The position numbers and the translations under genes are program-made. Below, piece by piece: positions 3,169 to 54,976 of a stretch of DNA of 64,000 bases (position 1 is its first letter; every line of letters starts with the position of its first letter). This DNA comes from a virus (taxonomy: Duplodnaviria; Heunggongvirae; Uroviricota; Caudoviricetes), in the IMG/VR virus record IMGVR_UViG_3300028591_000077; one strand, written 5' to 3'. Under the pieces are notes generated by a model. It searched no databases, was not told where the DNA came from, and was given only the letters and a program-made list of their open reading frames with translations.

Positions 3169-3699
3169 GACTGTGAAAACAGTCTTTTTATTTTGCGGAA
3201 ATTGTCGAATCAGATTCCAACATCGTACCCGGAATTCGGGTAAATCCGACTATTTTAGTGGAATTTTACGTTTTTGGGTACCCACGATGCATGATTCGAC
3301 ATGAAAAAAGGGGTTTACAAACCGTCGGAAACATGTTGAAATGTACGTGGGGATGGCGCTGTCATCGTGGAAATATTCACTAATTAGTAGAATTTAGCTG
3401 TGTCATCTGATCAGCTGAATCAGATAGATTACCGAAAATACAGACAGGACTTATCGATATTGTAGCAGGACTGGCATCGGGGGATCGGATAAATTGTAAA
3501 TTTCCACTAAAAGCGAAAGCTTTGCAGCTCGGGGGATCCACCCACAAGACGTGAATGATTCGATTTTATGGGTTTACATCTATATATATAGATGTATGGG
3601 GCTGGATTCGGCAAAGCTATATTTACTAATTAGTGATTTTACCGGATACAGCTGATCCCCAAATTCGATTCGATGTTTACAAATCTTTGTTTTTATCGT

Positions 3700-3912
3700 A
3701 TAATATCTACAGTCAAGGTTAAGGTAAACACACCCTAGAGCCTTAGCGTTGTGGGTTCGACTCCTACCTGGAACATGGTGATAGCGCAAATAAGACCATG
3801 TGAAAGTCAGCCAGCGAACGGGATCTGGCATGAGAGCCAAGTGGTAAAAGTCCATGTTGTGTGTTGAGTGGCAGAGAAGACATTAGAAAGGTTTGCGACT
3901 TCTAATGTCTTT
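3700..3912 (+). ncRNA. candidate small RNA (about 200 nt) with tRNA-like T-arm motif GGGTTCGACTCC
   Basis: TTTACA-N17-TATAAT promoter at about 3670-3700; no ORF; strong terminator 3884-3912. Confidence 0.3.
3884..3912 (+). terminator. rho-independent terminator
   Basis: gacattagaa...ttctaatgtc stem followed by T7 run. Confidence 0.7.
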
Positions 3913-3985
3913 TTTTATTTTATTATTTACAATTATATTAAAGCGCGATATAATATTAATAGAGAGAAAGAGAAGGTAACCAATT

Positions 3986-9094: not shown

Positions 9095-9203
9095 ACGAAC
9101 TTAAATAATAATTAATATTAATGTTTACATTATGTGAAAAGTAATGTATAATAACAATAGAGTCGAGACAACCATACCTCGACTTTTATTGTGGAGAGAG
9201 AAT

Positions 9204-9647
9204 ATGGAACATCATCTGAACATTGTCAGGAAGCTCAAGACTGCGCTGCGGATAGCGAAAACCACTAGCAAGGTAAGCGATGTCCGCGAGTATCATCTTG
9301 GCGCCGTCATCTTCGACAAGCATAAGATTTACTGCTATGCCTGCAACACCGACAAAGAGATTCCGATGCAGAGATACTACAACAGGTTCAAAGCGCCTGA
9401 CGCCAATAAGTGGAGAAAGCATTCCGCCCACGCCGAGATGAACTGCATCCATAAACTACTACAGCAATACTACGACAAATTGCCGGACTACTCAAAGCTA
9501 TCGATATTGGTATACAGAGAACACCATGACGGAACGCTCGCCATGGCACGTCCCTGTAAGGCATGCTCTCAGGCGCTGAGGGATCTGGGATTCAGGCATG
9601 TCTACTATACTAGTGATAACGGCTTGTGCTACGAAGAATTCATCTGA
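9204..9647 (+). CDS. cytidine/dCMP deaminase-like zinc-binding protein
   Basis: HAE ... PCxxC zinc-binding motif pair (SAHAEMNCI ... ARPCKACSQA); GC about 50 percent; start set at RBS ggagagag + ATG. Confidence 0.5.
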   Translation: MEHHLNIVRKLKTALRIAKTTSKVSDVREYHLGAVIFDKHKIYCYACNTDKEIPMQRYYNRFKAPDANKWRKHSAHAEMNCIHKLLQQYYDKLPDYSKLSILVYREHHDGTLAMARPCKACSQALRDLGFRHVYYTSDNGLCYEEFI

Positions 9648-9664
9648 TAAGGAGAACATTGAAA

Positions 9665-9835
9665 ATGACATTCGAGGGTAACTACAAAATCTTCATCCAA
9701 GGCGACGACGATAAATACGACGTCTGCGTCCGCATGCCGGAGAACGGTATGATAGCGAGATTCGACTGCGTATACGCGGCCGACAAGTATGCCAAAGAGC
9801 ACGGCATAGTATCAGGGTATATAGTAAAGAAGTAA
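9665..9835 (+). CDS. small hypothetical protein (56 aa)
   Basis: RBS aaggagaa + ATG; GC-rich. Confidence 0.4.
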   Translation: MTFEGNYKIFIQGDDDKYDVCVRMPENGMIARFDCVYAADKYAKEHGIVSGYIVKK

Positions 9836-9857
9836 TATAATAAGTATACATAGGGCC

Positions 9858-9884
9858 TGGCGACAGGTCCTTTTTTCATATACG
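9858..9884 (+). terminator. rho-independent terminator
   Basis: gggcctggcgacaggtcc followed by T6. Confidence 0.55.
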
Positions 9885-10114
9885 TCAGGCCAGGATACTG
9901 GATCCGGGGCGTCTGTACGGGCTATAAAAGCCACTACTGGAATAGTGAAAATTTGCATTGAATTTTCGGCGGGGGCCCCTAAATTTTTCACACTTGCTGT
10001 GCGCGAGAAATTTGCCTTTCGATTTTTCCACGCGCGCACATACGCGTATATAAAGAGAGTAGCAAAAAGAGTAGTAATTTAAAAAATTTTATCGTATAAT
10101 ATAAAAAGAGGTAT

Positions 10115-10633
10115 ATGTATATGAACAAGACTTTAACGAACGCATCGCAACTTAATATCGACCTATCCGCCTTCCATGAGCCCGACCGCAAGTGGAAGCA
10201 GTATTATTATGAGGATATTGAACATAATCTATTGTTCCTCATTCCTTCTTATATGGCCTATGGTCCTATAGTCGTGGACCTTGACTGGGCTAAGACTGCC
10301 AGGTTTACTACCGGAGACAGTGCTATCCATATGTTTAAGGACTATGCTTGGAACATGACTTCTAATGTTCGTAGAACTAGCTATGTCAAGACGACTGTTA
10401 CTGATAGAAGCGTTAAGTGCGGAAGGAAGACTATCATTCTTGGTTTATTGGTGATGGACAAACTATATAATGAGCCTGATTCTATTGATAAGCTCGCCGT
10501 CAATTATCTTAATGGCAATACGCTTGATAATAGGAAAGTCAATCTATCTTATGGCGTCTTAAAGGAGAATAATGATAGTAAGTATTCTTCTGAGGTTCCT
10601 GCTGTCAATTATCCTTGTAAGATTTGGTGGTAA
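10115..10633 (+). CDS. hypothetical protein (172 aa)
   Basis: ORF after cgtataatat promoter. Confidence 0.5.
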   Translation: MYMNKTLTNASQLNIDLSAFHEPDRKWKQYYYEDIEHNLLFLIPSYMAYGPIVVDLDWAKTARFTTGDSAIHMFKDYAWNMTSNVRRTSYVKTTVTDRSVKCGRKTIILGLLVMDKLYNEPDSIDKLAVNYLNGNTLDNRKVNLSYGVLKENNDSKYSSEVPAVNYPCKIWW

Positions 10634-10699
10634 AAATATTAAAAAATTTCTATATTACTTTATATAGGATTGTATAATATATTAGACAGGAGAATATTT

Positions 10700-11347
10700 A
10701 TGTGTAAGACAGTTAAACAAAGTAAAAATGAATTAGTTATTATCGGTGAGATTGTTCATATCCGATTAGTAAATACTGGGCATTATACAAAGGCTACAAA
10801 GTCTACATTCTATAATTTACATGCCGACTACTATACTTGGTATGAATCACCTGACAGATATGCTTATGCTACCGTTAATGGCGAGACTATTAAATTACAC
10901 GAATATATCAAAGGTAAAAGACCTGGATTAATGGTAGACCATAAAGATAGAGATAGACTTAATAATACGGATGAAAATCTTAGAGTCTGTTTACCAGCAG
11001 AAAATGCTCGCAATACTAGCTTAGCAAGAAATAATAAGCTTGGTGTTAAAGGTATTAAGCAAGAGAAAGATGGCAAGTATACAATCCACTTATGGCCGGA
11101 TTCAGATGGTCGTTATATTGGTAGAACGGCAGACTTAATTGTAGCTCAATTAGTTTACAATGTTGCAAGTAAATGGTATTATGGTGATTTTGCTTATCAA
11201 CACGAAATTGCTGAGAGAGATATCACACAAGCGAGACTTAAAGATACTAGCACATTATTAGAACACTTTAAAGAAAAAGAAGAAAAACGCAATAGAGAAG
11301 TTCCTCACGTATTAGGTTCATTCTATGTTGCACAAGAAGCTATTTAA
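10700..11347 (+). CDS. HNH homing-endonuclease-like protein
   Basis: HEYIKGKRPGLMVDHKDRDRLNNTDENLRVCLPAENARN matches the HNH (H-N-N) core. Confidence 0.6.
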   Translation: MCKTVKQSKNELVIIGEIVHIRLVNTGHYTKATKSTFYNLHADYYTWYESPDRYAYATVNGETIKLHEYIKGKRPGLMVDHKDRDRLNNTDENLRVCLPAENARNTSLARNNKLGVKGIKQEKDGKYTIHLWPDSDGRYIGRTADLIVAQLVYNVASKWYYGDFAYQHEIAERDITQARLKDTSTLLEHFKEKEEKRNREVPHVLGSFYVAQEAI

Positions 11348-11399
11348 TAAGTAAAAAAATTTAAAAAAACTATTTACATTTAGAGAAATCTATTGTATA

Positions 11400-12295
11400 A
11401 TAATTATGTAGCTTGTAGAAGAACCCTATAAGAGAATATAAGAATACAATTATCGACGGATAATATGACTTAAAAGGTATTATAGGGACAGGTCTTGAAG
11501 TTATTGTAAGACGACGGCATCTAATAAGTCGACCAATGTTAGTTGAACAGTCTGAATGATGGAGTCAATTCGAATTATACGGCCTACAACGCTATACATG
11601 CCAAGTAAGTTATTGAGTTACCCAATGCACAAAGCGAAGGGTATTAAATGGCAATCGCTACCGACGTCGCAAGACCCAGGCAACAAACAGAGCTTAATAA
11701 CCCGTTCCTCAAAGCCAATTCAAAATGGAAAACGTTAGATAAACACTGACTTATTTGAGTTTCTGGCGGATTTCTGACAGTGAAAAAATAATTGGTTTTG
11801 AGGACCGGAAAAGCGGGTTCGACGCCCGTCGTAACGTCGTACGGCGTTATATGTAGTTCAGGTGTAGGTAGAACACCGGTGGCAAGTTCGCGAGGAGTTT
11901 GGCTAAGCATAACCCCGACGACATATCAGGTAGCGAAGTACAAGTGGCAAGGTGAGAGAGCCGATCTGATGTGCAATAACCTTCTTAGGTTATCTAAGCA
12001 TATTGTCAATCAGTATTCTTAGACAACCTGCAGAAGCTAAAAACCACGTTAAAAACCATAAGATAATCGGTTAAGTGGAGATGGAACCGATTGTGAGGAA
12101 TCAGGCGCAGACGACAAATCCCGAAGACACTGCGTGATCAAATGGGCGGAAGAATGGAGTAGCTAACCATTCCAAAATATGTTAAGTATCTCAGGAGTAA
12201 CTAACCTGAGTGGTAGAGGTGTGATGACTTCAGTCATCTCCAAATATAAAGAGTCTAGAAATGGGCTCTTTTTTCTTATTTTTATTGTATTATAT
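11400..12295 (+). ncRNA. candidate large structured non-coding RNA (about 0.9 kb, family undetermined)
   Basis: tttaca-N17-tgtataat promoter at 11376-11400; no credible ORF on either strand for about 900 nt; GC above flanks; many local hairpins; T-run terminator near 12265-12290. Confidence 0.35.
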
Positions 12296-12560
12296 ATTGA
12301 TAAGGTTGAGCCAAGAGGCTGGCTTAAAAGAAGACATCAACCTTATTACAGAAGAATGGCTCCGCATACAGGGCACGTAAAGTTCGACTGTGATTATTGT
12401 TTATTACTGAAATTCTAGATTATCTTGTATGCATGTTTGAAGCGATTGGCGCTTGACCGTGGAGAGCATTATTATATTGTGTAAAAAGCGTAATGGCACC
12501 GAGTCTAGAATCGTTGCCATTTTTTATATCTTCATTAATTGCTAAATTATACGATAGGAT

Positions 12561-13643
12561 GTGACGCTAATGAAGAATCTAGTTAAGACTGATTTCGATA
12601 CAACAGTAGAAGAACTTAATAGCTTAAATGAGCAGTATGCTGATACTGCTGATTTTAATGTTCACATTAATTTAAAAACTCCGTCTACGCAAGAGATAAA
12701 GAAAGCACAAGATGATTTTAAGAACAACGCTAATAATCTTATATTAGACTATCCTAATTTTCATCTTGGCTATGATTTAATGATGTTTGAAGCATTATTT
12801 AATTTTTATCTTAATGACCAAACAAATGCCAATAATAGTGCTTGGGCCGATGATCATGCAAGACAAATTATGAATGCTATGTTTGATGACAACGGACGCT
12901 GAAAAGGCAGAGGCTCTTATAATTACATAAAAAATATTATTGTTCCATTAGGCAATAAAGAATTAGAAAGAGCTATGAAGCTTGCTTGGGGCTTGATGTA
13001 TACCTCTGATAGTGCAAAGATAGCACATAAAGTTATTAAGATGAATGGTAGTACAATAACTACTACTTCTAATGTTGCTAATAATGTAACAAAAGACAGA
13101 GCTATTGCTTTTGTAAAAGAAAAATTATCAAAAGGGATTTTTATGTGGACAGGCGGTTTTAATGAAAATTCTTCGTTTGAAAATGCAACATTTGAAGAAA
13201 AGTTCTTAACATTCCTTTGCATGCAATTAAGCGTAGAACAAGAAATCAAAACCATACCAATGGCTATTAGAGGTGTAGCAGTAACAGATGAACAAAGAAC
13301 CTTATTCATAAGAGGTATGCAAACCATAAGAGATATTATTTATAGTAAGAACTATGATAGAGTCTTAGATATTTATACAACTATTGCAGAGGTGCACGGC
13401 GAGCTAGAAAAGGGTGGAGCATATTACACTGATTGGTTCCAAGTATTCTATAATAATAAGAAGATATTTGTTGACTTTGAAGTTATGGAAATGGGCTTAG
13501 CATTATTTATGAAGAAAATTGGTTGGCATTTAACGTATGATAAAATAGTAGACATTATCGGAATAGATAATCTTGAAAAACATTTTAAATATGGTGATAG
13601 CTTCTTATGTATGCTTAATAGAATAAAAGTAATAGAGGATTAG
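12561..13643 (+). CDS. hypothetical protein (360 aa if TGA at 12900 is read as Trp); N-terminus paralogous to next gene
   Basis: track ORFs 12561..12902 and 12975..13643 are in frame, separated only by TGA; fused length matches the 347-aa paralog. Confidence 0.45.
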
Positions 13644-23352: not shown

Positions 23353-26300
23353 ATGGCAAAAGACAGATTAGTTGGCAACTTAAACATGGATATGGTTGAA
23401 GTTGATTATCAAGGTGTAGAAACTGAAACAGCAGATACTATAGTTGATAACGACAATAGAACAATTGCAACTGAAGTTAAGAAAGTTCGTTTTCCATTAG
23501 TTTTTGCAATTAATGGCGAAAACATAAAATATGATGGAAGTGAAACGATTTTAATAAGCTATGACCATTTTGATTCAGACTTAGAAGCAGAAATTGCACA
23601 GCGTAAAGTTGCAGTTGGTAATGAAGAAGCAAGGGCAAGAGCTCGTGAAGATGCTCTTGAATCAGATTCCGCAAGCTTTTTAGATATTGAACAAAATGAA
23701 CAAACAGGTATTGTTACAATCAAGCTATTGAATGTTCGTAATGAGCTTTTGGACACTAAAACATTAGATTTAGAAACTGAAAAGATTATTAGAACAATTG
23801 CTCTTAACTATCCTGCAAAGAAATTAATATTTACATCCGTAGATGGAACAGCTATTGAATGCGATATTAAGGACATGATTAATGACTTTGAAGCAAAACT
23901 AGCTAATTTAGATACTTCTCTGACAAATATGTTGGCTACTGAGAGTTCTAGAGCTGTCAGCGAAGAAGGAAGAATAGAAGCTAAAGCAGAAGATTTAGTG
24001 GCTACAGAAAAAAATAGAGCTGAGGATGCAGAATCACAGCTTGCTGCTGATTTGACTGCTCATAAGGCTGACAAAGCCAATCCACACGGAGTTACTAAAG
24101 CTCAAGTTGGTTTGGGAAATGCAGATAATACAAGCGATATAGACAAACCCGTATCAACGGCGCAGCAAGCAGCTTTAGATTTAAAATTAGATAAAGACAA
24201 TTTTGGCTGGGCCATTGCAGATCATACCTATAATCCTGAATTTGGTTATACTGCCGGAGATACAGTTTATTATGTAGATGTAGATAATCCACATCGTGGC
24301 TATTTGTATGTAGCTAAGGAAGATATCGCAGCACCTGCTGGTGATTTCGATTACACTAAATGGAATACCACAACATTAGAAAGATTGATATGGTATAAGC
24401 AAGATAAAATCGACGACAATAATAAGCTTTTTGCTGATTATGTCGACGATTCTAATGCAGTTCATAAATTCGCAACAAGTGAGCAATTAACACAAATCGC
24501 CACAAATAAAACGGATATAAGCAATCATAAGGCAGATAATGCAAATCCGCACAATGTAACTAAAGCACAAGTGGGTTTGGGCGATGTTGTCAATACTGGT
24601 GATAGCGCAACTCCTGTAGAAAACGGAACAACAAAATTTACTACAGGTGGTGCTTATACATTAAAAACTGATTTAGAGGCAAGCATTTCTGATGAAGCAT
24701 CTGCAAGATCTCAAGCCGATACAAACCTACAAAACCAAATAAATACGATTGAAGCTAGAAGCGACGTAATCGACGTAGTTGCTTGCTATGATAACCACGG
24801 TGAGCAAAAATCTGATATTGTTCACTATGATATCACTTCCGGCAAAATTTCAAATAATGATGTTGTTAAGGTTTTAATCGACGAAACACATGATGATACT
24901 GTTGCTTATTATCGTTGAGTAGCTACAAGCGGTGTTGGTGTTTGGAATTATGTAGGTTCTGTTGAAGCTTATTATACAAAAGCTGAAACTGATGTCATTG
25001 AATTAGGATTACAAAATCAAATTGATAATGATATTGAGATTGTTCCTTATCAAACAACAACTACCTTAACAGATGCACAAGTTGAAAAAGCTAAAAACGG
25101 CAAGCTAGCAGTCTATTACAGTGGAGTTTTATTACGCCCAAGCAGTATTGCAGATAATTTTATTATTTTTGCTGCAACCAACTGAACTGCAACAGCTAAT
25201 GCTGATAATTTTATTACAAAAGAAAATTATAAACATACATATTGTTTCTTGTATTTAAGTACCAAAAAACTTGGTGATTATAATTCTTCTATAAAAGATG
25301 GTATTTCAGATAATACTAATAATGTTTTTAATAATACCACTATACCGGATACTTCTGGAAAACAAATAGTCCGTGCTCAAAACCTTCGCAGAACCCAAGA
25401 CATGATCTGCCAAGATTATTATAGCCCATCATCGACTTATTCAGTTGGAGACGTGGTAATCTACGAAAACAAATTATATGAATGTTCTACTGATATTTCT
25501 GTCGCAGAAGCTTGGGATTCTACACACTGGACTCAGATAAACTTTGTTGACTATGCTAAATATAGAACTCCGGATATTGGCTATTTTGAAATTACTAGCT
25601 ATACTGGAACTTTGACTGATGAACAATGGGCAGAATTGCATAAAAGTATCTGTTTTGTTCGTGTTATAACTACAAGTTCAGATACAAGAAATGGTATATA
25701 TGTATATAATCCTCTTAGTTCAGCAGGTTCAACAAGTAATCGAATCTATCTTCAACAAATGTTGTATATTGGCGCTAATACTATGCAGTTTGAGATTAGA
25801 TCAGGTTATATTGCTGTTACAATTGCAACAAAGGCATATGAGGTCAGTGGGCAGGATTATATTACTTATAATAAAAGCTATATTGATTATTTACTCAGTA
25901 ATAAGCTAGAAACTACTAAACTCGCTGCAAAATATTCTACAAATAATACTTACGCTGTCGGTGACGTCGTTATTTACCAAAATGATTTATATGAATGCAA
26001 TACGACAATTAGCACTGCTGAGGCCTGGACCGCGGCTCATTGGACAAAGACAAGCTTAAGCACTTTAATTGAAAAATATAAATTACGTGTTATAGAGCTG
26101 GCAAGTGATGCCGGTGATACATTTTCTGCAGATTTATTAGCAAAAATAAAAGAAAATCCAGTTATCTTTGTATTACATAATCCAGATGGTCGTTATTTTA
26201 GACTAGAATATCAAGATACTGATTTATTGTATTATTCTGTTTGAGTTTGTAGTGGTACTGGAAATGGCAGAGGTAGAGTTTATAAATATGGTTATACTGT

Positions 26301-28956
26301 TAATAAAACTACTGGTCAAGTCATACAACACGATATTGATGTTCTAAATGGTGGTAATTATCAAGGAAGCCTATATTGAAACCAAAATATACCGTCAGGC
26401 CACTCGACTGTAGAATTACAGAATATTTATGATTATTCAAAAGGGGTATATTATAAACCCTTAACGATAGACTTATTTTATCCAGCTTATAATTCATCAT
26501 ATACATATTCAATTGGCGATATTGTTTCTTATAAAGGAAAATTCTATATTTGTATTTCTGCTATTTCTACTGCAGAAGCTTGGACGGCCGCTCACTGGGC
26601 TGAGACAAATCCAGGCCAGCAAGTTATAGAATTAACAGCTGTAAGTGGAACACTTACTGATGTCGAATATGCTAAAGTAGCTAGTAAAAATGCACTTATT
26701 TTGTATAATAATTTTTACTATTTAAAATATAAAGAAACAAATGATAATTATAGATTTTCTGGCGTTTGTTTTGAATGGGATTGAGCTAATGGCAGACACG
26801 AAAAACCAGATATATTTATTAATAAAACTACTAAAGCATATAGCGTTTCAACTTATACTATAAAGAATATAACTGCAAATCCAACCTTAGCAGGAACAGA
26901 ATCTAACTTAAATAGCCTACAGGTTGGCAATACAAAATATGCATTGCCTTTTGACAGCAAGCAAGATATATTAGTTTCAGGAACTAATATCAAAACCATT
27001 AATAATACTTCTTTACTCGGCAGTGGTGATTTAGCTATCAATAAATCATCTGTAGGATTAGGTAATGTAGATAATACTAGTGATGCTGATAAACCTATAT
27101 CTACTGCTACTCAAACTGCTTTAGACTCTAAACAAGATATATTAGTTTCAGGTACAAATATTAAAACAATTAATAACACATCTATTTTAGGTTCAGGAGA
27201 TATTTCTGTTCAACCAGTACTGGTTGGTTCAGGAACAGGGCAAAACATTAAGACAATTAATAGTAATTCTATCTTAGGAGATGGAAATATTAATTTACAA
27301 GTACCTTTAGTCGGTTCTGGTACAGGACAAAATATTAAAACTATCAATAGTTCTAGTATTTTAGGAACTGGTGACCTTTCTTTACAACCAACACTTGTTA
27401 GTTCTGGAACAGGTCAAAACATTAAAACAATTAACAGCACATCAGTACTTGGCTCTGGAAATATTTCTGTTCAACCTGTATTAGTCAGCGGAACAAATAT
27501 TAAAACAATTAATAATGAATCATTACTGGGCAGTGGCAATATCAATACTAGTGCTATGCAAGAAATAACTTGATCAGAGCTAAAGAATAAGAAAGATAAT
27601 TCTCTATTAGTTCCTGGTCAACTTTATAGAATAACCGACTATATTTGTACCACTTTTCAAGAAAATACTACAACTGCTAGTAGACAATTTGATATCATAG
27701 TAAGAGCTTTAAGCAATAATGCGTTATCAGAAGAGGCATTTGCTGCACATTGCGCCGTTGAATCAGGAGCAGGAAGTGATTTTATGGCAGCTAAAATGCA
27801 AGCTTGGAAAATATGATATTGTATCGATAATGATGACACAAGATTTAAATGGGCTAAGGGAGGCACGGCTTATATGACACTTAGCTGTCGTTCTTTGCCT
27901 ACGGCTGCAACTTTTTACAGGGATTCGGCAAAAGATGCTAATGGATATTATGCATGGACAGGCACTTCTTACAGCAGTTCTCAAGCATATACAAAAACTT
28001 TTTACACTAATACATTAAATATAAGTACAACTGTCCAGCTATATGAGGATTCTGCTGGTACTATCTATACTGATTATAGCATCAGCGAAGCAGTTTCTAC
28101 TGTAACTTCGGCGTCATTTAGAGCCGCTGGAAGTTCTTTCCCGTCTGTATGGTTTTATAGAGATTATGCTAAGGATGCCAATGGTTATTATGCATGGAGC
28201 GGTAGTAATGGAAGTAGCTACTCCGGAACAAAATATACATCTACTTTAAGCATTTCAACTTCAATGACGCTTTATAGGGATACTAATGGTACAGCAGAAA
28301 CGAACTATAGTATATCCGCAGTTTCTAATTTTGAACCTGTTGTTTCATTTTGATCCAGTGCTTCTGGCTGGCCGAACACACAATTTACAAGAGACTCTAG
28401 CAAAGACACTAATGGTTTGATTGCTTGGAGCGGAACCAATGAGAGTTACTCGTACTCGGGTACGTTATACACTAAAACATTTGAAATAGCACCATCAACG
28501 CAAGTATACTCTGACAGTGGCACAGCAATTGCTCATAGCCAATACTCTATATCTGGTATATCCATAAAGGTAGGCAGAGGTGTTATATATAGAATGATCG
28601 ATGAATTTGGCAATGACGTTCCGTATGATTTTAAAAACATATTATTTAGTTTTAGCAGTCCGCAAATTTCTGATTTATTTACATTTAACTCAAGCAGCGG
28701 TAGTACAGATATTAGTTTAGATGGTTCTTGTCATGAAAATAAAATAGAAAAATATTGTGACGATTCTGGTAAACAAGAATTAAACTTCACAGTATTTAGC
28801 CCAACTAGTAGCTCTTATAAAATGTGTAAAAATAAAATAGGTTTGAATAACAAGAACAATGTCATTCGTCATAATTTTAAATGCAACCTTATTGGAGCTA
28901 ATTATCAAGGTAATATAATTACATCAGAATATAGTAATCATACTTATGATAACTAA
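23353..28956 (+). CDS. tail fibre / receptor-binding protein, 1,867 aa, with 8 in-frame TGA (Trp) codons
   Basis: five track ORFs (23353, 25249, 26944, 27874, 28417) share one frame and are separated only by TGA; tail-fibre motif H.VTKAQVGLGNxDNTSDxDKP twice; three CBM5/12-like YxVGDVVxYxNxLYECxTxISxAEAWxxxHW modules; 27-aa repeat array; three about 80-aa YRDxAKDANGYYAW[ST]G repeats. Confidence 0.75.
26944..27573 (+). repeat. in-gene tandem array of 27-aa (81-nt) repeats [QP][PV]LV.SGTGQNIKTINS.S.LGSG within the tail fibre
   Basis: at least 7 consecutive units readable in the translation. Confidence 0.65.
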
Positions 28957-35246: not shown

Positions 35247-36197
35247 ATGATTAATGATAAATTAGGTGATAGAATGAAAAGATATGAAGCCGTTACCAAA
35301 ACTACCCTAACTAGTAGAATGCCGGTTATTATCAGATTAGATGGCTGTCATTTCCATACGTTCTGTAAGGGATTTAAAAAGCCTTTTGACCCTCTTATGT
35401 CTAAGACTATGCAAGCTACTATGAAGTATCTTTGTGAGAATATTCAAGGCTGTGTTTTAGGTTATACACAAAGCGATGAAATCACTCTTGTTTTAATTGA
35501 CTATAGAAAGCATAATTCATCTGCTTGGTTCGATAATGAGGTTCTTAAAATCACTTCTGTTTCTGCAGCACTTGCGACTTATGCATTCAATAAGTATTTC
35601 AATGAATTCTATCTTGAACAGCTTGCTGAAAAAGGCGAAGCAGACGAATATGATTTAGTCTATGATAGAAAGCGCAGACAAGGTGCTTATTTTGATGCAC
35701 GTCCGTTCAACGTCCCTCGTGAAGACGTTACTAACTGTATTCTTTGGAGACAGTTGGATGCCGAGCGTAATTCTATTAACTCTTTAGCTCAAAGTCTATT
35801 TAGTCACAAAGAACTTCAAGGTTTAAGCCTTAAAGACACTAAAGCTAAAATCGAGACTGAAAAAGGAATCATTTGGGGTGAATTGCCAACTACTCAAAAA
35901 CGTGGCTCATGCTGCGTTAAAGATTATTGGTATACTCTTGATGATGGCCAAATCGTTAAGAATGATTCGCATATCTGCTATAAAGACAAGACCGGTAGAT
36001 TCTACTTTGATAATGACGGATTCTACTTCTTTGCTACTGGTTTAAAGGATAATTTCAATTGTGCTTTCAGTGCGCAAGGCGTTAAGATGGATGTCAAAGA
36101 ACATTCAAGTTGGAGAATCGATGACAATATTCCGCGCTTTGTTGACGATGGTCGTGAATATATTGAAAAATTAATTTACCCAATTGATGAAGAATAA
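35247..36197 (+). CDS. Thg1-like protein (tRNA-His guanylyltransferase family, 3'-5' nucleotidyltransferase)
   Basis: GDRMKRYE, IIRLDGCHFHTF and GYTQSDEITLVL align with Thg1 motifs VVRLDGRNFHRF and AYGQSDEYSFVF. Confidence 0.8.
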   Translation: MINDKLGDRMKRYEAVTKTTLTSRMPVIIRLDGCHFHTFCKGFKKPFDPLMSKTMQATMKYLCENIQGCVLGYTQSDEITLVLIDYRKHNSSAWFDNEVLKITSVSAALATYAFNKYFNEFYLEQLAEKGEADEYDLVYDRKRRQGAYFDARPFNVPREDVTNCILWRQLDAERNSINSLAQSLFSHKELQGLSLKDTKAKIETEKGIIWGELPTTQKRGSCCVKDYWYTLDDGQIVKNDSHICYKDKTGRFYFDNDGFYFFATGLKDNFNCAFSAQGVKMDVKEHSSWRIDDNIPRFVDDGREYIEKLIYPIDEE

Positions 36198-37992: not shown

Positions 37993-38048
37993 TTTACAAA
38001 CCTCCGAATTTATCGTATAATATTATGGTAGATATCGGAGGTATTTTT

Positions 38049-38978
38049 ATGAATTACAAAGCATATCAACACATTGAAAAAATTGGAAGCGGAGAAGTCG
38101 AAGGAATTCTTAATGGAACCTGCTATCTTTTCTATAAGATTGACGGAACTAATTCTTGCATTTGGCTTAAGGATGATGGAACGTTAGGCTTTGGTTCTAG
38201 AAAAAGAGAGCTTACTACAGGCAAAGATGGCGATAACCAGGGATTTATGACTGCCATCACCACAAATGAGTCCTATAAGGCTGTTTTTGAAGATATTAAG
38301 GCATTTTTGATTAATAATCCTAATTGGATTCTTTATGGCGAATGGTTAGTTCCTGTCAATATCAAGAATTATAAGGATGATGCCTGGAGAAACTTCTACG
38401 TCTTTGATATTTATGATACTGTTGAAGACAAGTATCTCGATTTCGACCGATACAGCAAGCTTTTAGATAAGAAATATCCTAATATCAAATACATTCCTCT
38501 TTTGGCCAAACTTGAGAATCCGACTGAAGAAGATATCAAAGCTCTTCTCCCTAGAACTGGTGAATTCTTAATTAGCGAAGGCCTTGGTGAAGGTATTGTT
38601 ATCAAGAACTACGATTATGTTAATAAGTATGGCCGTAGAACTTGGGCTAAGATGCTTACTGAAGACTTCTTGTCAAAAAAGAAAGGTCTTCGCGAAGGTA
38701 AGAAAATTGCAGCCGAAGAAGGTACTTCTACTGAATATGAAATTGTTAAGCTTCTTACTGTTGAGCATATCGTCAAAGAGAAAACAAAGGTTATGGAAAG
38801 ACGCAATAGCCCAACTTTTGAAATGAACATGGTTGCAGAGCTTTTGAATCGTGTATTCGATGAGTTCTGGAGGGATAACTGGGAAATCATTCTCAAGAAA
38901 TTTCACAACCCAACCATTAACTTCAAGACTTTGAAAGCTCTTTGCAACAATAAAGTAAAGGAAACATTAGGTATTTAA
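38049..38978 (+). CDS. RNA ligase (Rnl2-like nucleotidyltransferase)
   Basis: motif I YKIDGTN (KxDG), motif IV EGIVIKN, motif V WAKM; start set at ATG after ggaggt RBS. Confidence 0.65.
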   Translation: MNYKAYQHIEKIGSGEVEGILNGTCYLFYKIDGTNSCIWLKDDGTLGFGSRKRELTTGKDGDNQGFMTAITTNESYKAVFEDIKAFLINNPNWILYGEWLVPVNIKNYKDDAWRNFYVFDIYDTVEDKYLDFDRYSKLLDKKYPNIKYIPLLAKLENPTEEDIKALLPRTGEFLISEGLGEGIVIKNYDYVNKYGRRTWAKMLTEDFLSKKKGLREGKKIAAEEGTSTEYEIVKLLTVEHIVKEKTKVMERRNSPTFEMNMVAELLNRVFDEFWRDNWEIILKKFHNPTINFKTLKALCNNKVKETLGI

Positions 38979-40175: not shown

Positions 40176-40231
40176 CAATGCCTTTTTATTATTTGCTAAA
40201 TTATTTAGAAATATTTTGGCAGGATAATCAT

Positions 40232-41881
40232 ATGGCAACAACTAAAAAACAATTTATAATCCCTAAAAGAAGCCATGAAAAACCAATTGACTTTGAGGTT
40301 GTAACTGGAACAGTTCTTTCCGATGATATTGGTCTTTTTGCTTATAATTCAAATTCAGCTTGGAGTAAATGGGTAATTTCAGACATTAAAAGCGGTTTAC
40401 AATTACAATGTAAATTTAATACATTAGCAGATTGTAAAGCTTTCGTAGAAACCATGCCTCAAGAGCTTGTTGATAAGATTAAAGCTCGTCAGCAAGATCA
40501 AGACTACTTAGAAATGTGTAATAAAATTAAGCAGCAAGCTTTAGAACTTTCTGTTTCTAATAAATACTATGAGGCTTTTAATGGAGATTTTAATGACCTT
40601 TATAGATTAAATGAAGAAGCAATTGGTCTATTCGAATCATTACATTTTAATACATTAGTTGAATCAGTTAAAATTGACTTTGCAAATGAAGTTGCAGAAC
40701 TTATTAAAAAGTATCCAGAGAGATTTAGCAATATTGATGCTGAAAATTTAGATAAACCTAAATATATTTCAATTGACTATTTAGATGGCTGCACAGATAT
40801 TACTTTTGATACCGGATTAGGCAATGATGACCCAATTGCAGACTTGACAGGCAATTCTACAAACCTTCTTGCTTTATCTGAGTATGATGATTTAATGAGA
40901 GAAGTTTTTAAAGGTAAAATTGATAAGTGATTAAAGAAGCATAATTTATCTCATGAGGATATCTGTTGGCTTAAATATGATCCTGATATTGACCAAGTAT
41001 TCTTAGAATTTAATACAGAACCAATTCATGATGAAAAAGAAGAAAGCTTAACGGAATCAAAAGAAGATTGAATTAACTTTGAGACCTGGGCTGGAAAAGA
41101 TAATGTTGAATTATTTAAGAAATTACAACCAAGATTACAAGGTCAAGAGCGTGACATGTATTATTGGATGGAACAAGGCTTAGATGCTCTTGAAGCAAGA
41201 TTGGCGGAATTACAAGCAACTCCTACAAAGGCTGAAAAGAATGCCGAAGCCGCTGGAAGTGCTGAATTAGTATACACGGATAATAATTGGTTGGTTTATC
41301 ATATTGATTCAGTAGAAGCCGCAAGAAAATATGGTAAAGGCACAAAATGGTGCATTTCAGCTGAACATGAGACAGCAGACGGTCAAACAGCTGAATCACA
41401 TTGGGAAAGTTATGTTTTGCGCGGTGCCGATAGTTTCTTTATTGTTATTAATAGACGAAACAGTAGAGATAAATATTGCGTAGTCCATTATGTAGATGGC
41501 ACAAAAGAGTTCTGGTCTGCGAATGATACTGTCATTAGTGAAATTCCTAATGGCCCTGCATTTGAGCCGGTTATGCTTACTGACACAATTCCAAATGTTA
41601 TTATAAAATCAGCTTATATCATTGCAGAAGCATTAGTTGACCGTATGGCTTCAAAGCTTGAATTATTTAGAAAGCCAAAAGGTTTTAGATTCTTTTTAAC
41701 TTCAAGATATGGTAGCGATACAAATGATAAAGTATTAAGATTATTTGCAAATATTGCTGCAGGTTTTAGACAATTTGGCACATCAGATGAGCTATTTAAC
41801 TTATATAGCTCTAAAGAATCCTATCGTGAAGCTATTGTAGAAGAAGTAGCAAAGCAAGTTCAAATTTTGGCAGGTAAATAA
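40232..41881 (+). CDS. hypothetical protein (549 aa, two TGA-Trp codons)
   Basis: track ORFs 40178.. and 41156.. are in frame, joined through TGA at 40928 and 41068; start set after TTGCTAAATTAT motif. Confidence 0.5.
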
Positions 41882-44606: not shown

Positions 44607-45071
44607 ATGAACATTATTAAGTACCCAGACGAAAGGCTTAGAGAAATTTCCAACAAAGTCAGTCTCCCGCTTTCTGCAAAAGACAGAGCAACTTTAGATG
44701 AAATGTATTCATGGCTAAAAGATAATAGCGATGCTGCCGTTGGCTTATCAGCTATTCAAATTGGCATTGCAAAAAGAATGTGTGTCATTAGAATTAAAGA
44801 CGAAAAGACCATTGGTTACAAGCTGGTTAATCCGAAGATTATTAAGCACTCTAATAGACAAATATTTATGTCAGAAGGATGCTTGTCTGTGTTAGAAGAT
44901 CATGAAGAGGCCATCCCAAGATGGGAATCTGTTGTGGTAATGGCTTATGATGCCATCTCAAATAAAAATATTGTAGTTGAAGCGACTGGCTTTCTAGCGA
45001 GAGTTTTTCAGCATGAAATTGATCATATGGATGGCAAACTTTATATTGATTATATTAAGGAGGAAATGTAA
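44607..45071 (+). CDS. def: peptide deformylase
   Basis: GLSAIQIG, EGCLS and QHEIDH match PDF motifs 1-3; leaderless ATG right after ttgtataatat. Confidence 0.85.
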   Translation: MNIIKYPDERLREISNKVSLPLSAKDRATLDEMYSWLKDNSDAAVGLSAIQIGIAKRMCVIRIKDEKTIGYKLVNPKIIKHSNRQIFMSEGCLSVLEDHEEAIPRWESVVVMAYDAISNKNIVVEATGFLARVFQHEIDHMDGKLYIDYIKEEM

Positions 45072-45487
45072 TGATTGATAAATTCGATGAAGAATATAGT
45101 TTTTTAAGTAATTATTATCCATGTAAAGTTGTTTATAATGGTTATACATTTTTAAGTTCAGAAGCTGCATATCAATCTCAGAAAGACCCAAGCCGCGTGG
45201 AAGAATTCATTAATTTAGAAGCGGATGATTCAAAACACTTGGCCAGAAAAGTTAACATTAGGCCAGATTGGGAAGAAGTTAAATTACCAATTATGGAAGA
45301 AATTGTTAGAGCTAAATTTGAGCAAAATAAAGACCTTGCTGAAAAATTAATTGCAACAGGCGATGAAGAACTTGTTGAGGGTAATTATTGGCGCGATTGT
45401 TTCTGGGGTGTCTGCAATGGTCAAGGTGAAAATCATTTAGGCAAAATACTTATGCAGATAAGAGCTGAACTTGGTGGTAATAAATAA
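45071..45487 (+). CDS. NADAR (YbiA-like, DUF1768) domain protein
   Basis: FLSNYY, SEAAYQSQK, RAKFEQN..L...L.ATG...LVE, WG...G.G.N.LG align with E. coli YbiA. Confidence 0.75.
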   Translation: MIDKFDEEYSFLSNYYPCKVVYNGYTFLSSEAAYQSQKDPSRVEEFINLEADDSKHLARKVNIRPDWEEVKLPIMEEIVRAKFEQNKDLAEKLIATGDEELVEGNYWRDCFWGVCNGQGENHLGKILMQIRAELGGNK

Positions 45488-48258: not shown

Positions 48259-49683
48259 ATGTTTGTTAAAAAAGTAGAATTTAATTGGACAGATACAAAT
48301 CTATTAAGTAGCTTACTTGGCCTATTTAATGCTTTTAAGCACGCAGATAAAGAATTATATCTTGTTGGCGGTTGCGTTCGAGATTTACTTCTAGGCAAAA
48401 CTCCAAAAGATTATGATTTATGCACAAACGCCACCCCTGATGAAGTTAAGGCTATTTGTGAAAAGACCGAATTAAAGACTTTTGATTCCGGTATTAAGCA
48501 TGGAACATTAACTGTTATTGATGATTTATATCATCAAAGCTTTGAGATTACAACCTACCGTATCGATGGAAAATATTCAGACGGTCGTCATCCTGATGAA
48601 GTTGTTTTTACTCCTTCATTAGAAGAAGACTTAAAACGTCGCGACTTCACAATCAACTCTTTCGCTTATGCTTTATCAAAACAAGAATTAATTGCTTTAG
48701 ATGAGTCTTATTTCAAAGACTTAGAATATGGCATTATTCGAACTGTTGGAAATCCAGAAGAAAGATTTAAAGAAGATGCTTTGAGAATGCTTAGAGCGTT
48801 CAGATTCATGGCGCAACTTAATTTCAGCCTTGATGCCAATACATTTAATGCTATTAAGGCTTTAAATTCACTTCTTGTAAATGTTTCTAAGGAAAGAATT
48901 AGAGATGAGCTTACAAAGATTGTTATGAGCGATAATCCACAAGTTTTAGAGCTTATTGTTATTGCTAAGCTAGAGATATATATTTTTGATGGTAAAACTC
49001 CATTAACAGATTGCGTCAATTGCCAACATGATAATCCATGGCATTATACTGACGTATTTCATCACACAATGGATGTCATTAAAAGAGTGCCTAAAAAGTT
49101 TGAGCTAAGATGGGCTGCATTGTTCCATGATTTTGGAAAACCAGCAACAAAGCAACTAAAAGAGGGAACTACAAATCATTACAATTATCACGGCCATCCA
49201 GACGTTTCTGCTGAAATGGCCCTGGTTTTGATGGATATTTTGAAGTTTTCAAATGACCAAAAAGACTTAATTTATAAGTTTGTTAAATATCATGATACTG
49301 ATTTAGTGTCTTGCAGAAATGCAACGTTCAAAAATGTTCTTGTTGAGATTGGTGTTGAACATTTTCCTGACTTTATTAAATTAAAGCTAGCAGACGCAAT
49401 GGCACATCAAATCACAAAAGATACAAAGTGGGCTATCGATGCAATTAGCAAACTTTATGAAAGATTTGATAAAACAGTCGTCGAATCACAAGCCTTGACA
49501 GTTAAGGATTTAGCAATCAACGGTTATGATATAATCAATGATGGATTTTTACAAGGTAAAGAAATCGGCGATTGCCTAAGATGGATGCTTGATATCGTGT
49601 TAGAGCACCCAGAATATAACACACGAGAAAAATTGCTTGAGCTTCTTCAAACGTTCAAGGAGATGTCTTTTCAGGCAAGCTAA
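48259..49683 (+). CDS. cca: CCA-adding tRNA nucleotidyltransferase with HD domain
   Basis: LVGGCVRDLLLGKTPKDYDL pol-beta head motif; downstream HD motifs HHTMDV / FHDFGKP. Confidence 0.8.
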   Translation: MFVKKVEFNWTDTNLLSSLLGLFNAFKHADKELYLVGGCVRDLLLGKTPKDYDLCTNATPDEVKAICEKTELKTFDSGIKHGTLTVIDDLYHQSFEITTYRIDGKYSDGRHPDEVVFTPSLEEDLKRRDFTINSFAYALSKQELIALDESYFKDLEYGIIRTVGNPEERFKEDALRMLRAFRFMAQLNFSLDANTFNAIKALNSLLVNVSKERIRDELTKIVMSDNPQVLELIVIAKLEIYIFDGKTPLTDCVNCQHDNPWHYTDVFHHTMDVIKRVPKKFELRWAALFHDFGKPATKQLKEGTTNHYNYHGHPDVSAEMALVLMDILKFSNDQKDLIYKFVKYHDTDLVSCRNATFKNVLVEIGVEHFPDFIKLKLADAMAHQITKDTKWAIDAISKLYERFDKTVVESQALTVKDLAINGYDIINDGFLQGKEIGDCLRWMLDIVLEHPEYNTREKLLELLQTFKEMSFQAS

Positions 49684-49695
49684 GAGGACAAAACA

Positions 49696-50256
49696 ATGAA
49701 AGTGATATTCTTAGACATAGATGGCGTTATGAATGACGAGCTCGCATACAGGGCTTGGAAGGAAAACCCAGACAAAGAGACCTTTGAAGATTCTGACGTT
49801 CCTACGGATCAGCATATGGCTCAATTAAAGAGAATTGTTGATGCGACTGGCGCGGAGATTGTTTTGTCCTCAGCCTGGAGATGCTCTATTTGGGGCATGA
49901 GGACTGTTCTGGAGCGCCTTAATGACTATGGCTTAAAGTTATTAAGCGTTACTGATGAAGGTGTCCCAGAATCAGTTTTAGACGCCTCTGGCTTTGGTGA
50001 TTTAGAACCAAGAAGTGTGTCTAAGCGTTCTTGGGACGGTTCCAACACCATGATTGTTAATGATCGTGGTGCAGAAATTGCCGGTTGGATGCTAAGACAA
50101 AAGAATAAAGGAGTCAATATTGAATCATTCGTTATCTTAGATGATGAGGATGTCGATATTGTTCAATACTATCCGAAAAATCTTATCAAAACAAGCTATA
50201 TGGCTGGCTTGACTGATGAAGATGTTGAAAAATGTATCAGTATACTAAATAATTAA
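49696..50256 (+). CDS. HAD-superfamily phosphatase (paralog A)
   Basis: FLDIDGVMN motif I, VLSSAWR; paralogous to 55165 ORF. Confidence 0.55.
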   Translation: MKVIFLDIDGVMNDELAYRAWKENPDKETFEDSDVPTDQHMAQLKRIVDATGAEIVLSSAWRCSIWGMRTVLERLNDYGLKLLSVTDEGVPESVLDASGFGDLEPRSVSKRSWDGSNTMIVNDRGAEIAGWMLRQKNKGVNIESFVILDDEDVDIVQYYPKNLIKTSYMAGLTDEDVEKCISILNN

Positions 50257-54130: not shown

Positions 54131-54976
54131 ATGAGCAGAGAAGAAAACGTTAGGATTTTTCAAGACACAATGAATTTTATTCATGATAATAAAATCTTGT
54201 CAGAAGCTGTAAGAAGCACAATTCAAAATACAAAGCTTTATAAGACTTCACAAGAGCCCACAAATTTAGCTACTAAATGTTTTTTAAATAATGTCTTTGT
54301 GACAAACCATAAGACTTTTGAAGCAGTTTTTGAGTTACGTAAGACATATCTTAACTCTAAGATTGCAGTTCTCAACTTCGCTTCGGCAACAAAACCTGGC
54401 GGTGGAGTGACAAGTGGTGCTTCTGCACAAGAAGAGGCTTTATGTAGATGCTCTACATTATTTCCGTGTCTATCAACCAAAAGACTTTATGAAGGATTCT
54501 ATGGTCCGCACAGGGTAGATGGCAATCCACTTCATAATGATGATATTATTTATACACCAGATGTTATTATTTGCAAGACAGACGATGGTAGGTTTAATAG
54601 ACTATCCGATGATAAGTTTATTAAAGTAGATGTCATTACTTGTGCTGCTCCAAATCTAAGACATAACCCAAATCATCCTTTTAGCGATTATGATAGGGTT
54701 GTGGATGATGCAGTTATTTCTGCCACTGACTTAGAAGAGCTCCATTATAGAAGGGCGAAACAAATTCTTAATGTAGCTATTGAAAATGGTGTTAAAGTTT
54801 TAGTTCTTGGTGCATTTGGCTGTGGCGCTTTTAAAAATAGCCCAACTGTTGTAGCAAGAGCCTATAAAAGAGCTTTAGAGCAATATGCATCTAAGTTTGA
54901 TGAAATTGAATTTGCAATTTATTGCAGGGATTATGAAACTCAGAATTATGATGCATTTAAACGAGAATTAGAATAA
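54131..54976 (+). CDS. PARG-like macrodomain protein (DUF2263-type ADP-ribose glycohydrolase)
   Basis: PGGGVTSGASAQEE fits the PARG signature GGG-X6-8-QEE. Confidence 0.6.
   Translation: MSREENVRIFQDTMNFIHDNKILSEAVRSTIQNTKLYKTSQEPTNLATKCFLNNVFVTNHKTFEAVFELRKTYLNSKIAVLNFASATKPGGGVTSGASAQEEALCRCSTLFPCLSTKRLYEGFYGPHRVDGNPLHNDDIIYTPDVIICKTDDGRFNRLSDDKFIKVDVITCAAPNLRHNPNHPFSDYDRVVDDAVISATDLEELHYRRAKQILNVAIENGVKVLVLGAFGCGAFKNSPTVVARAYKRALEQYASKFDEIEFAIYCRDYETQNYDAFKRELE

Follow-up and report, generated by a model that had tools for sequence, protein, structure and literature searches.

The DNA analysed here, hereafter the window, is a stretch of 64,000 nucleotides (nt) from a phage of the Caudoviricetes (IMG/VR record IMGVR_UViG_3300028591_000077), and its subject is a non-coding unit at 11408-12279 that is predicted to give a transcript of ~870 nt, which I call RNA-1. 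RNA-1 has no credible open reading frame (ORF) and no Pfam or Rfam match, and my verdict is that it is a real, orphan, structured early phage RNA that matches no known family. Coordinates are window positions and features lie on the plus strand unless stated otherwise. The window sequence is identical to part of ENA contig ERZ27256846 k141_3714765 (131 kb), and sister assemblies of 237,135 and 238,828 nt imply that the carrier is a rumen jumbo phage with a genome of ~238 kb. Going by sample names, the sequences come from ruminant gut metagenomes throughout. Sister contigs were recovered by exact-protein look-ups, and RNA-1 is covered by three haplotypes of one phage species: that of the window (L009), that of L003, L004 and L010, and that of L011.

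Upstream of RNA-1 stands a promoter, P1, of the form TTTACA-N17-TATAAT (11373-11401; -35 element at 11373-11378, -10 element at 11396-11401), which agrees with the consensus at 11 of 12 positions, is the same in all haplotypes apart from one spacer base (11385), and predicts a transcription start near 11408. The predicted 3' end is set by an intrinsic terminator, T1 (12248-12279), with a 10-bp stem (12248-12271), a GAAA loop and a U-run, kept in every haplotype with one or two mismatches in L011 and L013. The region between them does not code: its longest ORFs under translation table 11 are 60-88 amino acids (aa), TAA, TAG and TGA are each present in all six frames, the longest stretch free of TAA and TAG is 99 codons when TGA is read through, six-frame translations find nothing in Pfam, and inspection revealed no small ORF with a credible ribosome-binding site. 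A recoded or hidden protein gene is thus ruled out. The guanine-plus-cytosine (GC) content is 0.39-0.51 within the region and 0.27-0.35 in its neighbours; cumulative GC skew has no inflection at the locus, there are no internal tandem or dispersed repeats of note, and GAGTCTAGAA, common to both terminators of the locus, is not significant window-wide. A preliminary description, made from the letters alone, had called a promoter at 11376-11400, a T-run terminator at 12265-12290, no credible ORF in between and GC above that of the neighbours; all four hold, and no conserved coding frame emerged, even with TGA as sense.

P1 is one of 14 promoters of the form (TTTACA|TTGACA)-N16-18-TATAAT in the window, all on the plus strand and 12 of them within 1-11.4 kb, and is the last member of this early cluster, which reaches at least 9 kb upstream of the window. 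Outside the cluster, the same strong type (TTTACA-N17-TATAAT) precedes an array of transfer RNA (tRNA) genes (at position 14018 of sister sequence L028) and a ROOL RNA (L028 18715), and is therefore also a promoter type for RNA genes in this phage. The array comprises at least 29 genes at L028 14067-20348 (window coordinates are L028 coordinates plus 52963), that is, 3-10 kb past the window end and ~55 kb downstream of RNA-1, and it runs past the stretch seen; the ROOL RNA (RF03087, 210 bits) lies inside it at L028 18783-19368, ~7.7 kb past the window end. A second class of upstream motif, 'terminator + TTATTGTATAAT', includes a site at 12283-12294 that belongs to a second unit described below. 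A third, TTGCTAAATTATAyGATA, stands before 12570, 19196 and 22993, the last of which heads the tail-fibre genes; its copy TTGCTAAATTATACGATA (12539-12556) is the promoter motif of the TGA-containing genes downstream, and the RNA locus ends there. Because the next gene (12570) uses this other motif, common to the tail-fibre operon, the locus sits at an early/late border, as had been proposed.

The predicted domains of RNA-1 differ widely in how far they have diverged. The 5' domain (11407-11596) is closed by a 12-bp helix, 11407-11418 with 11584-11596 (pairing probability 0.96), which is also present in an independent fold of L011 and, being invariant, offers no covariation evidence. It contains a hypervariable hairpin, hairpin 1 (11424-11487), which has a conserved apical AUC-GACG-GAU and is 37% diverged between the window and L011; its pairs 11430-11481, 11450-11463 and 11451-11462 have changed on both sides, and its middle helix is not conserved between the two. 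Mutagenesis of this hairpin by a diversity-generating retroelement is ruled out, the substitutions not being adenine-specific. A long hairpin, P-a (11702-11808), has a conserved base (CCGUUCCUCAAAG / CUUUGAGGACCGG) and a distal part of ~83 nt that is swapped for a hairpin of ~20 nt in L011; its pair 11721-11782 went from C-G to U-A in L003, L004 and L010. After a tRNA-like module (11804-11880) comes a conserved 3' domain (11878-12245) with a 23-bp hairpin at 11981-12036 and further hairpins at 12063-12094, 12105-12135, 12177-12222 and 12223-12238, the last of which (GAUGAC-UUCA-GUCAUC, pairing probability 0.97) had been picked out at 12222-12237 in the preliminary description. In this domain the pair 12005-12011 changed from G-C to A-U, and changes at 12046 and 12090 turn A-U into G-U.

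Divergence from L011 is 0% over 11405-11423, 1.3% over 11488-11713 and 3.5% over 11878-12245, and 11714-11877 is largely replaced. The adjacent coding gene has diverged by 5.9%, with 31 of its 39 changes at third codon positions (~14% of those positions). At 1.3-3.5% the RNA-1 core is 4-10 times more conserved than these neighbouring third positions, and the constraint on it is therefore much stronger than at synonymous sites.

Substitutions also respect the predicted pairing. The 17 substitutions of the L003 lineage break one pair of the window's minimum free energy (MFE) structure, compared with 4.5 +/- 1.4 for random equivalents (P 0.013-0.02), and cost 4.6 kcal/mol compared with 17.5 (P ~0.01); the same energy comparison for the minus strand yields P = 0.79, since several of the changes are G-U-compatible on the plus strand only. 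For the 39 alignable substitutions of L011, P is 0.02 for energy and 0.085 for broken pairs. Six of the 226 pairs have changed on both sides, against 1.1 +/- 0.9 after shuffling (none of 500 shuffles reached six) and 0-1 when partners are slid, and the L003 lineage contributes another two compensatory pairs (11721-11782 and 11835-11846). When the window and L011 are folded independently by MFE, the same domain architecture results, with the bases of stems kept and distal parts replaced. The fold z-score is -3.7 for the whole of RNA-1 and -0.8, -3.2 and -3.0 for its successive 290-nt thirds. RNA-1 is a non-coding unit under purifying selection, with a structural constraint on the plus strand. 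The core idea of the preliminary description, a probably structured large non-coding RNA running from promoter to terminator, agrees with this comparative evidence; of the checks it had suggested, covariation gave six plus two compensatory pairs among three haplotypes and Rfam gave no usable match.

Might the region instead be no functional RNA at all, and its hairpins incidental? It would then be what is left of a pseudogene or of a dead tRNA-like sequence, or it would act as DNA, for instance as an origin or as an insulator of transcription. Two tandem terminators at an early/late border would shield the late genes, the flanks are prone to gain and lose genes, the fold z-scores overlap those of coding controls, and the searches described below found no homologue outside one phage species. 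Against this stands the conservation of the core, which is unexpected for a remnant, and the strand on which the compensatory and G-U-compatible changes fall (P = 0.01 versus 0.79), which suggests selection on RNA rather than on duplex DNA. RNA-1 moreover has a dedicated strong promoter of the class that elsewhere serves the tRNA array and ROOL, no protein similarity in six frames and no GC-skew inflection. I regard a remnant or a DNA element as quite unlikely.

The module at 11804-11880 reads as a tRNA cloverleaf that has been circularly permuted, with its opening at the anticodon loop and its acceptor end closed. Its parts follow in the order ACCGG, AAAA, T-arm, C, an 8-bp hairpin with loop GUAC, AUGUA, GUUC-AGGUGUAGGUA-GAAC, A and CCGGU, where 11804-08 and 11876-80 pair as an anticodon-like helix and 11809-12 forms a 4-nt variable loop. 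The T-arm-like hairpin, GCGGG-UUCGACG-CCCGU (11813-11829), has all of G53, U54, U55, C56, R57, A58 and C61, and only two sites in the 64 kb match the T-arm motif perfectly, this one and another at 3751; in L011 the hairpin is CUGGG-UUCGACU-CCCAG, with two stem pairs changed on both sides and the loop kept. Abutting it is the acceptor-like hairpin (11831-11850; 8 bp), predicted by folding and backed by covariation in L003, where C11835-G11846 is U-A alongside two more compatible changes and three loop changes; L011 has an unrelated 7-bp hairpin, CGCUAUC-UUCG-GAUAGUG, directly after its T-arm. The D-arm-like hairpin, GUUC-AGGUGUAGGUA-GAAC (11856-11874), is preceded by UA and occurs in the window and L003 haplotypes only.

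When the module is un-permuted, by cutting in the GUAC loop and closing ACCGG/CCGGU with an arbitrary 7-nt loop, the resulting 77-mer passes as a tRNA in ARAGORN, with thresholds left at default, in the window and L003 haplotypes. Among 18,240 window 77-mers the same procedure made one unrelated call besides the reverse complement of the module locus, and among 5,000 shuffles it made none. The module is tRNA-like. The element that is robustly conserved is a T-arm that stacks on a capped minihelix where several helices join; the complete cloverleaf is confined to two of the three haplotypes, since L011 has no local D-stem. The L011 sequence GCUC can pair with an upstream GAGC (11691-11694), which would give a different four-way junction.

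Permuted tRNA genes are known in Cyanidioschyzon merolae, and the module shares with them, and with the mascRNA of MALAT1, a cloverleaf whose 3' half comes before its 5' half and a short linker between the acceptor strands; both halves and a 4-nt acceptor linker are present, and the T-arm of L011 weakly matches the mascRNA model. Unlike permuted tRNA genes, RNA-1 lacks an anticodon loop and a bulge-helix-bulge and shows no sign of being circularised, and its anticodon-like stem continues into ~400 nt of RNA on each side. ARAGORN and Rfam find no contiguous cloverleaf with an anticodon loop in the native sequence, inspection found no plausible anticodon-loop sequence flanking the anticodon-like stem, and no UCA triplet lies beside either strand of that stem in any haplotype. 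Lacking both, the module is probably not a decoder, and I judge it unlikely to be the precursor of a suppressor tRNA.

The suppressor question arises in a phage whose late genes, going by their reading frames, probably read TGA as sense, with early genes that look standard-code (a code-4 recoded phage). A single tail-fibre-like frame of 1867 codons at 23353-28956 contains eight in-frame TGAs and no TAA or TAG and joins five same-frame ORFs, and in-frame TGA as sense is also seen in 12561-13643 and 40178-41881. The TGA at 12900, in the first gene to have one in frame, is TGG (Trp) in L011 and L012. One could imagine that RNA-1, alone or with the second unit, aids the switch to TGA = Trp, either by supplying, maturing or assisting UGA suppression or by titrating release factor 2, and that its expression shortly precedes that of the recoded late genes. 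Its place is precisely where the standard-code early genes give way to the first TGA-containing gene, upstream of the eight-TGA frame; neither the 64-kb window nor the 29 tRNAs seen beyond it include a tRNA with a UCA anticodon; its tRNA-like module might be treated as a split or permuted tRNA by the RNA ligases, CCA-adding enzyme and Thg1-like enzyme of this phage; and Borges et al., who could find suppressor tRNAs for no more than 35% of the phages with code 4, suggested non-canonical RNAs for the rest. Set against these points are the missing anticodon loop and adjacent UCA, given which simple cutting and ligation cannot yield a UCA anticodon, and a would-be discriminator base that varies by haplotype (G, A or U). 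The boundary position may be coincidence, and an ordinary suppressor tRNA may lie in the remaining ~70% of the genome (roughly 150 kb of ~238 kb is outside the stretches seen), which includes the rest of the tRNA array. A part in the code switch is, on this evidence, improbable.

The closest match in shape is to the YrlA RNAs, bacterial Y RNAs whose tRNA-like domain has just such a permuted topology (Chen et al., 2014; PMC4201824). The Rfam YrlA model (RF02553) aligns the T-arm, acceptor-like stem-loop, UA and D-arm of RNA-1 in that order and with a compensated D-stem pair, at a score of 15.2 bits against a gathering threshold of 69, over model positions 31-81 only and with E = 1.6 in a 271-nt search. 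Both RNAs run from a variable region through T-arm, capped acceptor-like stem, UA and D-arm and are joined to the rest at the anticodon-stem position; the RNA-1 T-arm (GCGGGUUCGACGCCCGU) is near-identical to the YrlA consensus (GCGGGuUCGAgaCCCGC), and its acceptor-like stem of 7-8 bp has the length that makes Mycobacterium smegmatis YrlA, with a 7-bp stem, a substrate for RNase P cleavage and for CCA addition (PMC4201824). They differ in size, RNA-1 being ~870 nt and YrlA RNAs ~110-130 nt, and in tempo, for YrlA stems are nearly invariant whereas the RNA-1 module evolves fast and has no D-arm in one haplotype. The putative Rsr-binding motif near the YrlA 5' end, GNCGAAN0-1G (PMC4201824), was not found anywhere in RNA-1 by regular-expression search. 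Four things rule out membership of YrlA: the score, the absent motif, the size and a Pfam scan that found no TROVE/Rsr gene, either in the 4 kb around RNA-1 or among the other window ORFs scanned. That scan took in ~90 ORFs (70 aa or longer), among them all those that lie within 4 kb of RNA-1; five ORFs were outside it, namely the DNA ligase (45770), CCA-adding enzyme (48259), ATPase (52991), glycosyltransferase (42629, minus strand) and 43994 ORF, of which the first four have confident PHROG assignments. RNA-1 resembles the YrlA tRNA mimic in shape and is not a YrlA.

A related suggestion is that RNA-1 is a giant, divergent YrlA Y RNA, working with a Ro60/Rsr protein from elsewhere in the phage or from the host, which it would tether to an exonuclease for decay of structured RNA. 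YrlA RNAs do occur in phages (PMC4201824), and the arm order, T-arm and compensated D-arm pair just described speak for kinship. Bacterial rsr genes are reported to sit in RNA-repair operons (PMC7790460), and this phage is rich in RNA-repair genes: its RNA-repair, tRNA-maturation and anti-ADP-ribosylation genes, at 35247-36197, 38025-38978, 45071-45487, 48259-49683, 49696-50256, 54131-54976, 55165-55809 and 60683-62962, comprise a Thg1-like guanylyltransferase, an Rnl2-type RNA ligase, a NADAR domain, the CCA-adding enzyme (48259-49683), two HAD_SAK_2 'Swiss army knife' domains, a microbial PARG and a kinase-phosphatase-Rnl1 fusion (Pnkp-Rnl1). On the other side weigh the low score and missing Rsr motif, a length ~7 times that of Y RNAs, a T-stem in L011 that departs from the near-invariant YrlA sequence in a haplotype that also lacks the D-arm, and the absence of a TROVE protein in the ORFs covered. 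This is the least probable of the explanations considered here.

Other known families fared no better. At gathering thresholds Rfam 15 has no match in the whole window, and at E<=10 a search of 1.5 kb (11200-12700) gave sub-threshold matches only, none to the families that the preliminary description had named. The models for GOLLD (RF01998), OLE and raiA have no match even at E<=10, that for ROOL (RF03087) has none in the window at gathering score and none at E<=10 in 11200-12700, and that for HEARO, the IscB omega RNA (RF02033), has none at the locus. RNase P RNA has no Rfam match, and on the native sequence ARAGORN calls no tRNA or transfer-messenger RNA (tmRNA) at default settings and makes unconvincing calls only at lowered thresholds. 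As a positive control, the same Rfam search finds the 210-bit ROOL elsewhere in this phage. The general idea of a large structured RNA at the border was thus right, and each of the named candidates, GOLLD/ROOL/HEARO, a degenerate group I/II intron, tmRNA and RNase P RNA, falls away.

Homologues were equally elusive. INPHARED phages have none by blastn at E<=1e-5 or E<=10, and IMG/VR searches by way of the neighbouring 347-aa protein or the dCMP deaminase led to none. Exact-pattern scans of IMG/VR with four RNA segments, the first of which spanned the hypervariable hairpin, also found none, and in GTDB genomes two RNA-1 patterns gave 0 matches and then nine chance matches (high-GC genomes, seed only). 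A scan of JGI metagenomes returned a single near-identical contig, L010. Within the phage itself, RNA-1 has no similarity to the ROOL RNA or the tRNAs beyond a generic T-loop, and none to a further 29 kb of the genome.

Could RNA-1 nevertheless be a self-assembling ornate RNA, a cage of the ROOL/GOLLD kind, with the tRNA-like junction and the palindromic and CGACG loops as structural contacts? ROOL and GOLLD are reported to form RNA-only cages. All are large, highly structured, phage-borne non-coding RNAs, and in its ~870 nt, its phage location, its strong promoter and its multi-domain fold RNA-1 resembles them (PMC12286853); the same phage has a true ROOL under the same promoter type. The pentamer CGACG occurs five times in 11405-12275 where 0.6 are expected (z = 5.8), at sites that include the apical loop of hairpin 1 and the T-loop, and loops contain palindromes, CGACGUCG at 11662 and GUAC at 11839-42. 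The GUAC loop, for its part, is not conserved, being ACAA in L003 and UUCG in L011. Neither sequence nor structure similarity to ROOL or GOLLD was detected, RNA-1 has no likeness to the phage's own ROOL region and no ROOL, GOLLD, OLE or raiA match at E<=10, and whereas those RNAs sit next to or in tRNA clusters, RNA-1 lies ~55 kb from the array, with no tRNA in the window. I consider a cage unlikely. As a separate observation, GUGGCAAG occurs twice in RNA-1, at 11879 and 11944; both it and CGACG are possible protein-binding or tertiary-contact motifs.

In lifestyle, the nearest analogues are the unclassified early long non-coding RNAs of the Herelleviridae. Staphylococcus phage K expresses lnc001 and lnc002, early long non-coding RNAs of 0.6-1.15 kb that are abundantly transcribed, at least one of them from its own early promoter (PMC9241854). 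Phage K is a large Firmicutes myovirus, and lnc002 is likewise without an Rfam match; the phage K RNAs differ from RNA-1 in that they adjoin tRNA genes, have 29-35% GC and have no tRNA-like module that I could see. Neither lnc001 nor lnc002 has sequence similarity to RNA-1. In passing, the 3' part of lnc001 (L024 1133-1269; NC_005880 13632-13768) scores 43.4 bits against the Rfam model DUF3800-I, whose gathering threshold is 44.2, and lnc002, at 1.15 kb, has no Rfam match at all. One ATPase of the rumen phage is 45-49% identical to Herelleviridae proteins.

Taken as a whole, the explanation I favour, at a little better than even, is that RNA-1 is a structured RNA gene of a jumbo phage with a Firmicutes-type host, and that its permuted tRNA mimic engages factors that read tRNA shape. 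Host RNA polymerase would transcribe it from the strong early-type promoter up to the intrinsic terminator, and it would be an abundant early RNA. The transcript would consist of a conserved core and, at its periphery, two hairpin modules that evolve fast, around a central four-way junction, the tRNA mimic, in which the T-arm would stack on the tetraloop-capped acceptor-like hairpin, with the D-arm next to it in two of three haplotypes, and the anticodon-stem-like helix would open into the rest of RNA-1. So arranged, the mimic would show the tRNA 'elbow' and a minihelix to proteins or ribozymes that recognise them. As made it cannot decode or be aminoacylated, and hence one of two roles would suit it: it may tether or titrate a reader of tRNA shape on a large scaffold, or it may be an entry site for RNase P, which would split RNA-1 at the acceptor-like loop as in M. 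smegmatis YrlA. Candidate partners would be RNase P, TruB/TrmA, the phage's CCA-adding, Thg1-like and ligase/RNA-repair enzymes, or a host defence factor directed at tRNA. I interpret the contrast between a fast module and hairpin 1 on the one hand and a near-frozen core on the other as fitting an interface under arms-race or specificity pressure.

Several points weigh against this explanation. I infer the transcription, transcript ends, partner and function of RNA-1 from sequence, and the proposed function draws on analogy. The distribution of RNA-1 so far is one uncultured phage species, which is its weak point; with no homologue outside that species there is no family-level covariation, and the comparative data are three haplotypes of this one species. 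The structure tested came from one of the compared sequences, most of its 226 pairs are invariant and hence uninformative, and L011 breaks pairs in the middle of hairpin 1, at 11888-11921 and in T1. The fold z-score is moderate, with one coding window at -3.3. As to the mimic, L011 has no local D-stem and its module passes ARAGORN only at a lowered threshold, and the D-arm has a rival in a long-range helix formed by 11691-97 with 11853-59. Neither a TROVE/Rsr gene, in the scope given above, nor any other obvious protein partner was seen near RNA-1.

Large structured RNAs of bacteria and phages are few (OLE, GOLLD, ROOL, raiA and HEARO), and permuted tRNA mimics of this kind have so far been known only from the Ro-associated YrlA RNAs (~110 nt). 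Each of the earlier large RNAs led to unexpected biology, and RNA-1 matches none of them. It is best placed among tRNA-mimic-bearing RNAs and large ornate phage RNAs, and may be a new kind of large phage RNA. One genome joins RNA-1, a ROOL, at least 29 tRNAs, a toolkit for RNA repair and tRNA maturation, and recoded late genes, a setting that makes hypotheses of tRNA mimicry in phage-host conflict directly testable and could bear on the roles of ornate phage RNAs and on code switching in recoded phages. The most far-reaching proposal is a long shot: RNA-1 would found a new class of large phage RNAs, in which a capped, permuted tRNA mimic sits on a Ro-independent 'giant Y-like' scaffold, and in its boldest form would take part in the code switch, through processing by RNase P, ligase and CCA-adding enzyme or through titration of a tRNA-shaped or tRNA-binding factor such as release factor 2.

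Directly downstream of RNA-1 lies a second unit, RNA-2, for which the preliminary description had suggested a further promoter, terminator and RNA. The promoter-like site P2, TATTGTATTATA (12283-12294), belongs to the 'terminator + TTATTGTATAAT' class, which is seen at ~9 other sites, and copies the -10 region of P1; it is invariant in nine sequences. The candidate transcript of ~230 nt (12300-12527) ends at a hairpin (12492-12521) followed by U6. Over 12286-12530 it is 0.4% diverged from L011, and among the nine sequences it has one substitution, which is synonymous in a 20-codon ORF at 12356-12418, MAPHTGHVKFDCDYCLLLKF, with HxxH...CxxC spacing. This ORF is intact in all nine, and L010 has a 57-nt deletion (12419-12475) directly after its stop; its translation is doubtful because the ribosome-binding site is weak. 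The fold z-score of RNA-2, -0.36, gives no signal. What stands for the second unit is its promoter-like and terminator signals and its extreme conservation: it is a conserved element that is not evidently a structured RNA, and that may act as a small RNA, as a micro-ORF or, at the DNA level, as a regulatory site.

Upstream, a gene for a free-standing HNH homing endonuclease of 215 aa (10700-11347; HNH_3 and phrog_99 matches) lies outside the RNA unit, immediately upstream as described beforehand. It is absent from L003, L004, L010 and L011, all of which keep the RNA gene: where the window has a 170-aa gene and the HNH gene, L003, L004 and L010 have genes for 131 and 176 aa, and L011 and L025 have a gene for a 66-aa CxxC protein, L025 with a different HNH gene further upstream. 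The haplotypes break at 11347-11351, just before the RNA promoter, which is conserved. The HNH gene is a mobile insertion and a bystander to the RNA gene, and its absence from the sister haplotypes removes the intron-like and HEARO-like readings. HEARO is rejected, having no model match here and an HNH protein of the HNH_3/phrog_99 type that is encoded upstream and missing from the sister haplotypes. A group I/II intron with a coupled HNH gene is rejected likewise, with no Rfam match and no flanking exons, the flanks being a complete HNH gene with its own stop and an independently promoted gene. Window positions 10115-11350 and their counterparts in L003, L011 and L025 form a hot spot of gene exchange.

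Three other stretches of the window deserve mention. An ORF-free unit of ~200 nt at 3676-3917 also runs from a promoter (3676-3704) to a terminator hairpin (~3880-3910); it contains the second T-arm-like sequence, GUGGG-UUCGACU-CCUAC (3751-3767), has a fold z-score of -1.7, finds no match in Rfam and is 95.7% identical in L003. Just before it, a non-coding stretch of ~480 nt (3190-3670; GC ~0.42) carries repeated GGTTTACA motifs and is ~89% identical to L003, less conserved than its surroundings. Lastly, the dCMP deaminase region (9200-9900) has a GC content of 0.46-0.50, compared with a phage mean of 0.35, and is 89% identical where the sequence elsewhere is 97-98%, which suggests a mosaic or recently acquired segment.

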